IMG/VR virus record: IMGVR_UViG_2974625098_000001
Location: 59,622 to 123,621 of that record
Length of the DNA stretch: 64,000 bases
Source: a virus
Lineage: Duplodnaviria > Heunggongvirae > Uroviricota > Caudoviricetes
Reading direction: 5' to 3' (one strand)
Every line of letters begins with the position of its first letter. The stretch's first letter is position 1. Positions 47,860 through 61,182 of this stretch are shown one piece after another. The notes beneath the pieces were generated by a model that was given only the letters and a program-made list of their open reading frames with translations, had not been told where the DNA came from and ran no database searches. Made by a program: the position numbers and the translations under genes.

Positions 47860-48150
47860 ATGCGGGTGTGGCTCGATGACCTTCGGGAAGCTCCGAGCGG
47901 CTGGCTATGGCTCACCAGTAGCCGTACAGCCATCACCTGGCTTGAGTGGGCCAAGATGCTCAACGCTAGGCCAGAAGTTATGTCGTTTGACCATGACCTA
48001 GGGGGTAGCGACACCTCGCGGGCTGTGGTACTTTGGATGTGTGAGAACGAGTTCTGGCCTGACCAGTGCTTTATCCACAGTGCCAACCCAGTAGGCCGCG
48101 AGTGGCTGGCTGGTATGATTAACCGCTACGGACCTGGAGTGTCGCGATGA
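47860..48150 (+). CDS. hypothetical protein
   Basis: track ORF; RBS CTAAGGAGGAAAA. Confidence 0.55.
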   Translation: MRVWLDDLREAPSGWLWLTSSRTAITWLEWAKMLNARPEVMSFDHDLGGSDTSRAVVLWMCENEFWPDQCFIHSANPVGREWLAGMINRYGPGVSR

Positions 48151-54394: not shown

Positions 54395-54459
54395 GATAAG
54401 GTAAAACCGCAGGTCAGAGGCCCTGTCAGAACTTTTTCGAGAAAAGTTCGAGAAAAGTG

Positions 54460-59303: not shown

Positions 59304-59549
59304 ATGGCTCAGGGCATTTGGATTAACGGGGAGCGCCCCAAGTCCAAGAAGGCAATTCGAGAGGCTGTGGAAACTAACCCAGCCATGGTGGACGTGGAAG
59401 CCACCAGCTTGCACGGGGGAGAGTACGGCGGTCCTCTCCACCAGGCTCCGGAAGGCACGATGATTGTCTTTGTCGGGCCAGACCCGTACAAGTCTCGGAA
59501 GTTCTACGGCACCATTACCAAGTTCAACGGAGAGCTTCACATTTCCTGA
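59304..59549 (+). CDS. hypothetical protein
   Basis: ATG 59304 after GGAAGGGCACAGAAA; in frame of track ORF 59271. Confidence 0.5.
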   Translation: MAQGIWINGERPKSKKAIREAVETNPAMVDVEATSLHGGEYGGPLHQAPEGTMIVFVGPDPYKSRKFYGTITKFNGELHIS

Positions 59550-59605
59550 GAGCGACAAGAATATCCCTCGGCCCGGAAAGGGTCGGGGGATTTTTCTTTT
59601 CCCGG

Positions 59606-59690
59606 AAAAAATTCGTGAGAAAATTTGGAGACTTTCGTAAGCTTCGTAAAGCCTAAAACTTGGAGATTTTTGCGAGCTTCGTAAAGGGGG
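59606..59690 (+). promoter_or_regulatory. copy 6 (internally duplicated) of bipartite CGTGAGA / TTCGTAAAG motif
   Basis: AAAAAATTCGTGAGAAAATTTGGAGACTTTCGTAAGCTTCGTAAAG ... TTGGAGATTTTTGCGAGCTTCGTAAAGGGGG. Confidence 0.4.
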
Positions 59691-59699
59691 TTTCCCAAA

Positions 59700-60560
59700 A
59701 CCAGGGCAAACCGGACATGGCGGGCATATCGGTAAAAATTAGGTAAAGGCCGGCATTTCCGGCAAATCGGACATTCGGGACATGCCGGGCGAAACGGACA
59801 TAGCGGTTATCCACAGGGTTTATCCACAACTGTGGATAACGTCTGGTTACGCTCCGGATAAGTTACTCGACAGTCCGTAGCAAAAGCTCTGTACGCCGTT
59901 CTAAGAGCCTTTCAGCGGGTGACCGGTACCCCAGGTCATTTTTCGTCTGTTCGGCCGTTAGACGCGATTTTCACGCTCCGTAGTATCTGATGAGCTGTCA
60001 GGGAAACGACGTTCCCGCACGTCACGGCCGGTTTTCCAATCTGATGAGCCGTTAGGTTACTCGCGAGTGTGCGCAGCCTGTTAGCTGTGGATAACTTCTT
60101 TTACCTACTCGTTACCGAAAGCCTATGGACATGAGCTAGACCGATGCTGTATCACGCGCGCTTTCCTCTAGCCAAAGAAGGGCAGGACTGTTTGGTTAGC
60201 TAACGAAATAATTCGCGTGCCTAAGCTTTCTCGCGTCAGCGCGAACGAGGTCATTTCATTAGCTAAGGAAATGGTTTCGTTAGGTAATGAAATAATTTCT
60301 TTACCTAAGCTAAATATATTTGCCGGCCTTTTTTCTTTAGTTAGGCTAACGAATAATCGAATTCGGACATTTTCGCGTTTCCGCAGGTCATGCAGGGTTT
60401 TCCAAGCAATTTCAAGATTTTTTAGGGAGCTGCACCCCCTCTGACCTGCGGTTTTGTGTTCGTTACCAATCCGTGATGAAAAGAAGCGCGCTTCAAGGTC
60501 AACAACGCACCCCATCTGACCTGCGGTTTTCTACAAAAGCCCAGGTCAGAGACTCGCGTA
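59700..60560. repeat. gene-free repeat block: DnaA boxes, CGGACAT iterons, AT-rich 21-nt direct repeats, CTGACCTGCGGTTTT repeats (candidate replication origin)
   Basis: TTATCCACA at 59807-59815 and 59820-59828, TGTGGATAA at 59831-59839 and 60086-60094; CGGACAT x4 at 59712-59800; TTAGCTAACGAAATAATTCG-like x4 at 60196-60365; CTGACCTGCGGTTTT x2 at 60441-60530. Confidence 0.5.
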
Positions 60561-60885
60561 GTGTTTACCTCAGAACGAAGCAAGCAAACGAAACGGAGAC
60601 AGACAGGAAAACGCGAAACACGCGGGACGCGAAACCCCCGCAGACGGTATGGGATGCCTGGCGGCCCACTTGGACATACGGCCAGAGAGTGACCAAACAT
60701 TACCGGTCGCGTTTCGCAAAAAGCTAGACCGTTCGGGTGAGTCGGAAAACAGTTCCGTGACCACGAATAAGGATGTGATGCCTGCCTATAAGCTGCGCTG
60801 CGCTCCGAACGGAAAACCGCTCCAATCGATTGAATGTCTCTAGGAATTCTTCCTAGCGGCATTCCGGGATTGGAAAGGAAAAGCT

Positions 60886-61182
60886 TTGAAGAAAAAGGGT
60901 GTTGTTCGGGTGGCTGGTGACGCTGAATACCGGGTGAAAATCCGGTACGTCAAGGCGCACACGAATTGTGGAATGTGCACCATCATGCACGACCACGAAG
61001 CGGCCCCGGTTTCCGGAATTGTGGAAATGGGTAAGGCGGTGGCTGAAATTCTCGAATATTTCAGTCACGACATTGTCCATTCCGAGCTGTATTCGCACTG
61101 CGAGCGTATCGGCGTAGAAGTCGAAAGGCAGCACAAGGGCGAATGGCTTTGTGACGCGCAGTACGAAATTACGAGGGACTGA
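60886..61182 (+). CDS. hypothetical Cys/His-rich protein
   Basis: track ORF; TTG start. Confidence 0.45.
   Translation: MKKKGVVRVAGDAEYRVKIRYVKAHTNCGMCTIMHDHEAAPVSGIVEMGKAVAEILEYFSHDIVHSELYSHCERIGVEVERQHKGEWLCDAQYEITRD

Follow-up and report, generated by a model that had tools for sequence, protein, structure and literature searches.

The closest described counterpart of the region analysed here is found in phage T5 and its relatives. All 25 of the T5-like phages that have been compared have DnaA boxes in pairs separated by 3 bp; the untranslated region that contains them measures 1.2 kb, abounds in repeats and palindromes and is situated where the terminal repeat has its inner end (bioRxiv 10.1101/866236). 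Because the T5 origins map elsewhere, near the centre of the genome, this region was judged unlikely to be replicative (bioRxiv 10.1101/866236), and for T5 the sole proposal on the role of the DnaA boxes is an in-silico model. Among actinophages, the cluster A mycobacteriophages produce abundant ncRNAs from a 500-bp gene-free region located 3' of the early promoter Pleft (PMC5712189), and work on RNA-based prophage origins indicates that such RNA is needed for replication in some phages (PMC7157519).

The window, a stretch of 64,000 nucleotides, comes from the Streptomyces phage BillNye, a virulent phage of 127 kb that belongs to the Loccivirinae (Stanwilliamsviridae). Its positions 59550-60885 (1336 bp) are the largest gene-free gap of the genome, and the counterpart gaps, all of them also gene-free, span 1.0-1.8 kb in every relative examined. 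A preliminary description of this DNA had already recognised a gene-free block, but had ended it at 60560, short of its true extent. It had also found no credible ORF here, and this view is borne out by the decay of the two annotated reverse ORFs. We have ruled out gp027 (59653-59814, minus strand) and gp026 (60168-60515, minus strand) as true genes because both are frameshifted in Circinus, where the block is 92% identical, and both counterparts contain in-frame stops in Muntaha; the annotation of the remaining relatives is blank at these positions. The genes flanking the block are all on the plus strand. Just past the stop of gp028, an intrinsic terminator with a 12-bp stem and a T-run (59563..59600, plus strand) closes the upstream operon. 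At the other end, an A-rich, T-poor stretch (60570..60660, plus strand; AT skew 0.65-0.93) is a possible leader of the downstream plus-strand genes, which begin with gp025 at 60886; no promoter for it was found. Some 20 small genes follow the boxes towards the right end, and the block lies where the main genome gives way to this right-terminal module of small genes. The PHROGs scan of the flanking genes gave no match of known function, and the only Pfam match among the block-neighbour and terminal-module proteins tried was GP88, for gp017. No tRNA or tmRNA was detected in the block, and the top Rfam 15 match over 59400-61000 was His_leader, located on the upstream terminator, with 26.8 bits where the gathering score is 49. 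An apparent hammerhead ribozyme (CUGAUGAG...GAAAC) was discarded, as its stems II and III are unable to form and Rfam was silent on the block.

The most conspicuous components of the block are four perfect DnaA boxes, all of them exactly where they had first been placed. Boxes 1 and 2 (TTATCCACA; 59807-59815 and 59820-59828, plus strand) and box 3 (TGTGGATAA; 59831-59839, minus strand) make up a cluster of 33 nt (59807..59839), with gaps of 4 bp between the first two and 2 bp between the last two. The distal box (60086-60094, minus strand; TGTGGATAA, extended CTGTGGATAAC) repeats box 3 in the same orientation. Box 1 pairs with box 3 as an 11-nt inverted repeat (GTTATCCACAG / CTGTGGATAAC), and the extended 11-mer is common to three of the four boxes. 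Throughout the non-redundant genome we counted 7 perfect boxes where 0.79 would be expected (mean of 300 shuffles, maximum 4), and 4 of the 7 fall within 290 bp, in this block. They are perfect in all 8 aligned relatives, in an alignment with a mean column identity of 72%; the weakest blastn matches are 68-75% identical. The distance from box 3 to the distal box is also maintained (252-256 bp in 7 of the 8), and Gilson-type relatives have a TGTGGATAA-ACC-TGTGGATAA box pair. The middle box changes orientation from one lineage to another while its 9-mer stays perfect, which together with the conservation points to selection on a DNA-binding site. Being perfect, conserved across the family and able to flip without loss of the 9-mer, the boxes are almost certainly genuine protein-binding sites.

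Upstream of the cluster there are two different repeat arrays. A tandem pair of ~35-nt repeats ending in TTCGTAAAG (59620..59686) is of a (C)ATCGTAAA type that recurs at the equivalent site in relatives and also in the gap of phage Bmoc. It is followed by an (A)CGGACAT-like array (59705..59806), with a 9-bp phasing over 59761-59806. These are the iterons initially reported, and perfect CGGACAT copies were located at 59713, 59769 and 59794, plus variants. The array is common to Muntaha, and the Gilson and Blueeyedbeauty lineages have palindromes instead (TGTAGCAAT..GCTACAA and GTTGAACGTTCAAC). The CGGACAT-like units are probably sites for a phage-encoded DNA-binding protein. On the other side of the distal box lies an AT-rich tract (60190..60365) with ~21-nt direct and inverted repeats of the TTAGCTAA/GGAAAT type, conserved in Muntaha. 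The AT-rich repeats of this length noted at the outset were recovered by Tandem Repeats Finder at 60253-60309 (period 21, 2.7 copies), and direct-repeat families extend across 60190-60349. The GC content is 32-40% at 60240-60390, starting ~150 bp past the distal box, against 53% for the genome. This tract is a candidate unwinding element or, alternatively, a candidate target of phage Lsr2-like proteins; on reading the block sequence by eye we recognised neither a 13-mer nor a DnaA-trio unwinding pattern. In total, the 1.2 kb of the block that we scanned contain 22 direct-repeat families and 27 inverted pairs. IdeR/DmdR1 iron boxes were considered for the AT-rich repeats and rejected, the best site having 5/19 mismatches and the genome having 8 matches at <=6 mismatches, for 2-15 in shuffled sequence.

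The 255 bp that separate the box cluster from the distal box are filled by a discrete, conserved noncoding cassette of ~190 bp (59858..60048). It consists of a 5' block AAAAGCTCTGTACGCC, a central GGCCGTTAGACGCGATTTTCAC and a 3' hairpin region with a weak copy of the CCGCAGGTCA motif, and its internal spacing is constant (67-68 nt) even though the intervening sequence differs. The duplication of TCTGATGAGC described in this part of the block is real, but the copies are at 59986-59995 and 60040-60049 and not at 59983 and 60047. Streptomyces tectiviruses, which replicate by protein priming, carry the cassette too, without DnaA boxes there. This exchange of a cassette between siphoviruses and tectiviruses points to a host interaction not yet described. 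We tested 12 left-arm proteins of Forthebois, and none had a match in BillNye, so co-transfer of the cassette with an adjoining gene was rejected; its orientation relative to the neighbour genes is opposite in these two phages. For the cassette, an ncRNA gene, a scaffold for protein binding and a folded single-strand element are all conceivable. In the tectiviruses it terminates in a hairpin and U-tract. Of 15 family members, 10 have a cassette that is more stably folded than shuffled sequence; the mean z is -1.8, the BillNye copy has z ~0, and in a partial second copy the closing helix is retained through two compensatory changes. RNAalifold detected no covariation in the cassette, both strands fold equally well, and it matches no family in Rfam 15.

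Established for the block are the boxes with their conservation and constant spacing, the lack of genes, the AT-rich tract and the bounding terminator; DnaA binding, strand opening, helicase loading and a replication role of any kind are our inference. We regard the block as a conserved docking platform for host DnaA, and our best guess from its sequence is that the likeliest single role of such a platform would be to act as a replication initiation site. Tentatively, and with clear reservations, we suggest a DnaA-dependent origin embedded in a boundary and regulatory region. Host DnaA would bind the three-box cluster and the distal box, generating over the 255-bp unit an oriC-like nucleoprotein complex of fixed geometry, which would aid the opening of the adjoining AT-rich tract and then the loading of the phage's own replication enzymes (DnaB-like helicase, primase, DnaE polymerase). 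Accessory protein or priming sites might be provided by the CCGCAGGTCAGAG-type motifs, present on both strands, and by the lineage-specific repeat arrays. Conserved blocks split by variable DNA of fixed length, as in the box-to-box interval and inside the cassette, are also typical of enterobacterial oriC. The block is reminiscent of E. coli oriC, P1 oriR and the pSC101 ori in having boxes at both ends of a ~250-bp noncoding unit with fixed internal spacing, with repeat arrays and an AT-rich tract nearby. Unlike them, it lacks a neighbouring Rep or initiator gene and a GC-skew signal, neither a 13-mer nor a DnaA-trio was recognised in it, and the cassette that makes up the inside of the unit also occurs in phages that do without DnaA. 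BillNye does encode a helicase, a primase, an SSB and DnaE; no Rep protein, initiator or loader is named in its annotation, and the only matches of gp180-183, the neighbours of the helicase, are to families of unknown function. The cumulative GC skew, proposed beforehand as a check, has its minimum at ~7.4 kb of the record and its maximum at the right end, with no inflection at the block. This result is weak either way because the skew follows the one-directional transcription. The theta-type origin that had been proposed is partly supported: the boxes, repeat arrays, AT-rich tract and fixed spacings favour it, but the skew, the annotation (which names no initiator) and the spacer, which is the tectivirus-shared cassette, do not. 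The E. coli type of the boxes, their position in the sister subfamily and the likeness to the T5 region, all described below, weigh against it too.

The protein that binds the boxes would most simply be host DnaA. The high-affinity DnaA box of Streptomyces is TTGTCCACA (PMC4285127), whereas the BillNye boxes are of the E. coli type, TTATCCACA. All the Streptomyces phages inspected have A at position 3, where G is optimal for the host, and this, together with the 11-mer extension common to three of the four boxes, might suggest that the 9-mers are bound by a phage protein, their likeness to DnaA boxes being coincidence or mimicry. We find this improbable, since matching, closely spaced box pairs are present in unrelated phages of Proteobacteria, Firmicutes, Cyanobacteria and Actinobacteria, a distribution more readily explained by a universal host protein than by one private to a phage. 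Besides, the 11-mer CTGTGGATAAC is identical to box R1 of E. coli oriC including its flanks. Box pairs at close spacing are known from ~400 sequenced phages and from over 120 IMG/VR contigs, so that the recruitment of host DnaA by a phage, initially singled out as notable, is not novel in terms of the boxes per se; our literature search on DnaA boxes in Streptomyces phages found nothing relevant. Of the 120 IMG/VR contigs examined, 46 had four or more perfect boxes inside the 400 bp on each side of the head-to-head pair. Such frequent clustering, along with the perfection and conservation of the BillNye boxes, would also be expected of a DnaA sink, in which multiplying phage genomes titrate or inactivate host DnaA and stop initiation of the host chromosome. 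The E. coli datA locus is a DnaA-box cluster outside the origin that acts on DnaA, but it is chromosomal and needs an IHF site; the BillNye block would resemble it as a box cluster that acts on DnaA instead of starting replication, and an equivalent activity is a conjecture. With only 2-4 boxes per genome, and with the conserved position, the fixed spacing and the accompanying architecture left unexplained, we consider a sink very improbable. Another reading is transcription control, in which the block would be a terminator-to-promoter interval driving the terminal module and a small ncRNA (the 190-nt cassette), with DnaA serving as transcription factor and coupling early phage expression to the replication state of the host, and the repeat arrays as operators of phage regulators. 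A strong terminator opens the block and the flanking genes are all on the plus strand, so the downstream genes need a promoter within it. Moreover, the lineage-specific palindromes resemble operators, TTGACA hexamers are found ~40-50 bp past the distal box in several relatives, the gap of Comrade contains a complete TTGACA-18-TAGAGT match, and the terminal hairpin, better-than-shuffled folding and compensated helix of the cassette would all suit an RNA. As in the Pleft ncRNA region of cluster A, a gene-free stretch of ~0.5-1 kb heads an early or terminal gene block in an actinophage. However, there is no sequence similarity between the two, no DnaA boxes have been reported in the cluster A region, and the structured ncRNA, abundant there, is a possibility here. 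No sigma-70-like promoter was found on searching the BillNye block, the Bmoc box pair is located where two transcription units converge and not at a start, and the cassette shows no covariation, has the z score, strand symmetry and lack of Rfam match described above, and faces opposite ways in BillNye and Forthebois. Altogether we think this role rather unlikely.

The remaining possibility, by analogy with T5, is that the block marks the inner limit of a segment that enters or acts first; host DnaA, which is largely membrane-associated, would pause or anchor the incoming genome at the boxes, and the small terminal genes would be pre-early functions for host takeover. Like Repeat Region 3 of T5, the presumptive injection stop signal (~1.2 kb, gene-free, with direct and inverted repeats and palindromes; bioRxiv 10.1101/866236), the BillNye block has paired consensus boxes a few bp apart that are conserved family-wide, is located at the inner boundary of a small-gene terminal module, belongs to a large siphovirus that is virulent and has direct terminal repeats, and is more conserved than many neighbouring genes. 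In Bmoc and SaltySpitoon, from the sister subfamily, the box pair is at a convergent gene junction 60-115 bp upstream of the start (the inner edge) of the right-hand terminal repeat (11,063 and 12,588 bp, respectively). Their boxes lie at 8.4-9.7% of the genome from the right end, to be compared with 7.9% for the first-step segment of T5, and those of BillNye at 7.4-7.7 kb (5.8-6.0%), followed by the small genes. BillNye and Bmoc agree in this boundary position even though they transcribe the terminal module in opposite directions, away from the block in the former and towards it in the latter. About 200 T5-like records even match the 26-nt TGTGGATAA-ACC-TGTGGATAAC of Gilson-type relatives at 92-96% identity, but the two boxes themselves account for most of this identity. 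On the other hand, the terminal repeats of BillNye, Gilson and Blueeyedbeauty measure just 0.77-2.26 kb and start 5.4-6.3 kb past the boxes, which rules out a location of the block inside the repeat. In BillNye it occurs once, 5.4 kb outside the 2.26-kb repeat, and, unlike T5, this phage has as host an actinobacterium with a different optimal DnaA box, and its block includes the 190-bp cassette and a ~21-nt actinobacterial motif. Two-step DNA entry, which in T5 depends on A1/A2-type pre-early proteins, would be a prediction for BillNye, the T5 mechanism is itself an in-silico proposal, and no A1/A2-like function is named in the phage annotation. By analogy, then, a boundary of the T5 type is possible but doubtful, and we are a little more sceptical still of its fuller version, an actinophage counterpart of the T5 first-step-transfer boundary to which the Loccivirinae would have added a mobile 190-bp cassette and a ~21-nt host-factor motif. 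If true, large virulent terminal-repeat siphoviruses of both Proteobacteria and Actinobacteria would use paired DnaA boxes on the inner edge of a terminal pre-early module, and the DnaA captured there would pause or anchor the entering genome or otherwise stage infection. The BillNye block may be an origin, but its likeness to the DnaA-box region bordering the T5 terminal repeat is just as great. In any case, a T5-like DnaA-box element is conserved throughout this family of Streptomyces phages; in one subfamily it goes with the terminal-repeat boundary, and in the other it is set apart from it. This provides a second, genetically tractable system, with natural variants, for separating origin, entry stop and regulation.

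The ~21-nt motif (GTTTCCGCAGGTCAGAGG) is concentrated in the block and occurs in hundreds of actinobacterial phages and plasmids. One copy, GTTTCCGCAGGTCATGCA followed by GGTTTTCC, is on the plus strand (60377..60394); AAAACCGCAGGTCAGAGG, which reads CTGACCTGCGGTTTT on the plus strand, is on the minus strand (60438..60455), as is a further copy 75 bp away (60513..60530), a spacing that is identical in Circinus, Muntaha and Moab. The last of these forms an inverted pair with a degenerate plus-strand copy, GCCCAGGTCAGAG (60539..60551). The CTGACCTGCGGTTTT copies picked out previously correspond to 60441-60455 and 60516-60530, with inverted partials at 60381-60390 and 60540-60550. Other actinobacterial elements have the motif flanked by iteron-like arrays and immediately 3' of primase or helicase genes (D5_N, Prim-Pol, AAA_25), and in one plasmid it is 5' of a gene for a 'replication protein', which speaks for an origin. 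Against this, it is found about as often as beside replication genes next to genes for integrases or recombinases (7 of 96 neighbours) and near cos ends, frequently ~50 bp from them. A promoter or terminator is unlikely, the orientation with respect to both neighbour genes being close to half and half and no -10 element following the motif, and so is a Chi-like end protector, because both orientations appear near genome ends. A literature search for the motif string found nothing relevant. Its pan-actinobacterial distribution again points to a host interaction that has yet to be described. A relation to the single-strand origin (sso) of Streptomyces rolling-circle plasmids of the pIJ101 type is conceivable: in pIJ101, a motif-like GGGCCGCAGGTCAGAG is located inside a 135-aa ORF that matches spdA2 in length and position, and adjoins two CGTCACGTGACG palindromes that fit the sps repeats as described.

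The window proved to be 100% identical to the genome of Streptomyces phage BillNye (NC_042105.1; Stanwilliamsviridae, Loccivirinae), a linear molecule of 127,084 bp with an exact direct terminal repeat of 2,262 bp, and corresponds to record positions 59,622-123,621 (window coordinate = record coordinate - 59,621). Nearly all genes of this phage are on the + strand, the exception being a short - strand group at record 2.7-6.0 kb. The noncoding block with DnaA boxes that had been called a putative origin of replication falls at record 119,171-120,181, which places it 6.9-7.9 kb short of the right physical end and 4.6-5.6 kb upstream of the terminal repeat on that side. The actual gene-free gap (59550-60885, 1336 bp) is the largest in BillNye and opens with a strong intrinsic terminator (59563-59600). 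Replication and recombination genes include a DnaB-like helicase, primase, SSB, DnaE-type polymerase, UvsX-like recombinase and resolvases, and the annotation holds neither an initiator nor a helicase loader; the four genes beside the helicase have PHROGs matches solely to families of unknown function.

All four perfect DnaA boxes of the preliminary description were found where it had placed them, three in a cluster (boxes 1-3, at 59807-59815 and 59820-59828 on the + strand and 59831-59839 on the - strand) and one distal (box 4, 60086-60094, - strand). The non-redundant BillNye genome contains seven perfect boxes, four of them inside these 290 bp, for a shuffle expectation of 0.79 on average and four at most (300 shuffles). 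Boxes 1, 3 and 4 have in common the 11-mer GTTATCCACAG / CTGTGGATAAC, and the flanks of the boxes match those of box R1 in E. coli oriC. A lone fifth perfect TTATCCACA (48071-48079, + strand; record 107,692) lies inside annotated gp058 and, since no boxes are nearby, is probably there by chance. Most of the repeat structure also stood: the CGGACAT-type units are real and phased at 9 bp, as real as the 21-nt AT-rich repeats and the CTGACCTGCGGTTTT copies, and TCTGATGAGC is indeed duplicated, at 59986 and 60040 rather than at the positions first assigned. A 35-nt tandem pair in the block ends in TTCGTAAAG, and GC content at 60240-60390 is 32-40% vs 53% genome-wide. The reverse ORFs in the block, already suspected of being artefacts, are spurious: gp027 (59653-59814) and gp026 (60168-60515), both on the - strand and probably false gene calls, are frameshifted in the related phage Circinus and carry in-frame stops in Muntaha, and no gene is annotated there in other relatives. 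GC skew, proposed as a check of the origin, gave no signal at the block and had its cumulative minimum at record ca. 7.4 kb, where genes diverge; this is weak evidence because skew in BillNye tracks transcription.

A sensitive DNA search detected the block in 35 phage records, all of Streptomyces phages, and its best-conserved part runs exactly from the box cluster through the distal box. Column identity averages 72% among eight aligned relatives, and blastn identity is down to 68-75% in the weakest matches. Each of the eight keeps one to three perfect boxes at the cluster, and the distal box is perfect in all of them; its distance to the last cluster box is 252-256 bp in seven. The middle box reads TTATCCACA in the BillNye lineage vs TGTGGATAA in that of its relative Gilson, the orientation having flipped with the 9-mer still perfect. 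To judge from the alignment, this conservation looks like that of selection on a double-stranded protein-binding site. Position 3 of the box is always A in the Streptomyces phages inspected, unlike TTGTCCACA, the high-affinity DnaA box of Streptomyces and Mycobacterium (PMC4285127).

A search of the phage collection for the box cluster retrieved 398 records. Streptomyces phages, with both Stanwilliamsviridae subfamilies included, accounted for 84, and ca. 200 were T5-like phages infecting Salmonella, Escherichia and Klebsiella, with 92-96% identity to TGTGGATAA-ACC-TGTGGATAAC; there were also Microbacterium phages, matched at 343-367 bp from their left ends, and Lactococcus 949-like and Synechococcus phages. 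More than 120 IMG/VR contigs have a head-to-head perfect box pair; among the 120 examined (L293-L412), the spacer is 3 bp in 88, often GGC or GCC, at least four perfect boxes lie within 400 bp of the pair on either side in 46, and two contain 15. DnaA boxes in phage genomes are already known from lambda and P1. Their presence here is not new in itself: T5-like phages, too, have been described with ca. eight boxes, paired 3 bp apart, in a 1.2-kb repeat-rich untranslated region at the inner end of the left terminal repeat, a presumptive injection stop signal, with the origins of T5 mapping near the genome centre (Davison, bioRxiv 10.1101/866236).

In the sister subfamily Boydwoodruffvirinae, the terminal repeats measure 11,063 bp (Bmoc) and 12,588 bp (SaltySpitoon), and an inverted DnaA-box pair is found 60-115 bp upstream of where the right repeat begins (Bmoc, record 121,709-121,741, L413:2210-2242; SaltySpitoon, record 118,172-118,204, L415:1173-1205), inside a 1.2-kb gene-free gap where + and - strand genes converge. 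The Bmoc gap contains CATCGTAAA-type and TCGGACA-type repeats, as in BillNye, and neither the cassette nor the ca. 21-nt motif described below. In BillNye, Gilson and Blueeyedbeauty the terminal repeat has shrunk, to 0.77-2.26 kb. From these genome comparisons we infer that the family-wide conserved feature is a DnaA-box element situated at the inner border of a right-terminal module 7-12.6 kb long, a placement that holds whatever the direction of transcription of the module and whether or not the whole of it is repeated. The literature searched contained no description of family-wide box conservation in Streptomyces phages or of a link between the boxes and the terminal-repeat boundary.

The 245 bp that separate box 3 from box 4 are other than a neutral spacer. 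They contain a ca. 190-bp noncoding cassette (59858-60048) with conserved blocks GAAAAGCTCTGTACGCC and GGCCGTTAGACGCGATTTTCAC..GTAGTATCTGA and a 3' hairpin whose loop bears (U)UCCGCAGGUC. This cassette is also carried by Streptomyces tectiviruses, namely Forthebois (L012:3425-3615), RickRoss (L013:409-601) and one IMG/VR genome (L165:3442-3634), where it is intergenic, adjoins the DNA polymerase gene and has no DnaA boxes beside it. None of 12 tested Forthebois left-arm proteins has a BillNye match, so the cassette moved on its own; that tectiviruses, which are protein-primed, carry it too speaks against its being an intrinsic component of a DnaA origin. Shorter versions were found in other viral contigs, two of them on one 67-kb IMG/VR contig (L152:1932-2040 and L157:4519-4625), and BillNye has partial extra copies of the 5' part, one per strand, in its second-largest gene-free gap. 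This gap (record 124,303-125,249; L001:11684-12629) lies just past the window end and straddles the terminal-repeat start (record 124,823); the left genome end then has arrays of AT-rich TACTTT and ATATTCGC repeats.

In every full copy compared in which both blocks are recognisable, the 5' and central blocks of the cassette stand 67-68 nt apart, against 66 nt for the partial second copy, and the intervening sequence is unrelated among copies despite the held spacing. The two blocks pair in the minimum-energy folds of most copies and, by reading, the partial second copy retains the same helix via two compensatory changes. Overall the folding evidence is mixed: mean z is -1.8, with 10 of the 15 copies folding better than shuffled controls, both strands fold equally well, z is ca. 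0 for BillNye's own copy, RNAalifold detected no covariation and no Rfam family matches. Orientation with respect to local transcription is opposite in BillNye and Forthebois. The cassette is, we conclude, a real, self-contained functional unit. It may encode an ncRNA transcribed from its own promoter, act as a folded single-strand element or serve as a fixed-geometry protein scaffold; a mobile 190-bp cassette was not described in the literature searched.

CTGACCTGCGGTTTT is the reverse complement of a ca. 21-nt motif with the consensus (G)YGT-TTCCGCAGGTCAGA-GGCY, usually followed by GTTTYC beginning 20 nt from the start of the motif's own GTTTCC; GT lies directly upstream at 77 of 116 distinct IMG/VR sites that match the 14-mer exactly, where chance would give 1 in 16. 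A 30-nt motif consensus matched 776 phage records, nearly all actinophages (Mycobacterium 611, Gordonia 56, Streptomyces 44, Rhodococcus 41), and 155 actinobacterial plasmid records, 107 of them from Streptomyces (motif loci L166-L285, L286:38333, L287 and L289). Phage matches are almost always intergenic, in both orientations, and often 30-160 bp from the genome end; by our own count, ca. 48 of 60 among those listed are no more than 160 bp from it. In phiC31 a variant adjoins attP, the linear plasmid pRL2 has two perfect copies amid repeats near its end, and a 10-kb plasmid has the motif upstream of a 'replication protein' gene, at a distance of ca. 210 bp. At many loci a GC-rich hairpin precedes the motif and element-specific iteron-like or operator-like arrays bracket it, and, relative to either neighbouring gene, the two orientations are about equally frequent (own count). 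The motif has the behaviour of a mobile-element-specific site at the DNA level, and the literature searched held no description of such a pan-actinobacterial motif. Of 96 neighbouring proteins, seven are integrases or recombinases and four or five are primase/helicases with D5_N, Prim-Pol or AAA_25 domains, a tie to replication genes that is suggestive, not statistically strong. BillNye copies are at 60377-60394 (+), 60438-60455 (-), 60513-60530 (-) and 60539-60551 (+), with a weak one inside the cassette; the two - strand copies are 75 bp apart, a spacing identical in Circinus, Muntaha and Moab. One more, AAAACCGCAGGTCAGAGG (54403-54420, +), in a 148-bp intergenic region upstream of an Lsr2-like gene, is followed by a TTCGAGAAAAG tandem repeat (54436-54458).

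That the block is a replication origin is the likeliest of the readings weighed, but we hold it only tentatively and would not call it probable. The boxes are perfect, conserved and at a fixed, oriC-like spacing, an AT-rich tract adjoins them, repeat arrays fill out the block, no phage initiator was recognised and the ca. 21-nt motif is loosely linked to replication genes. However, the skew signal is absent (weak evidence, given what skew tracks), the boxes are of E. coli and not Streptomyces type, the unit encloses a cassette common to tectiviruses, the sister-subfamily boxes sit at a convergent junction and repeat edge, and T5 provides a precedent for boxes away from origins.

By analogy with that precedent, the block would be an entry or boundary element of the T5 type; we find this rather doubtful. 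It gives the best fit to the family-wide position but leans on a presumptive mechanism. DnaA-responsive transcription control with an ncRNA is unlikely: a purely promoter-regulatory role suits BillNye, where the block begins with a terminator and a promoter is required for the genes downstream, but fits Bmoc poorly. It is improbable that the boxes are bound by a protein other than DnaA, and we give very little credence to their acting as a DnaA sink.

Upstream of gp025, after an A-rich T-poor stretch, there is an unannotated 64-codon ORF (60649-60843, +) without PHROGs match, and Muntaha has an extra small gene annotated at the place equivalent by position. Pfam matches among the right-terminal module proteins scanned were confined to gp017, the largest protein of that module (record 123,417-124,154; L001:10797-11534), which starts at window 63796, runs beyond the window end and matches GP88 with E = 8.6e-60.
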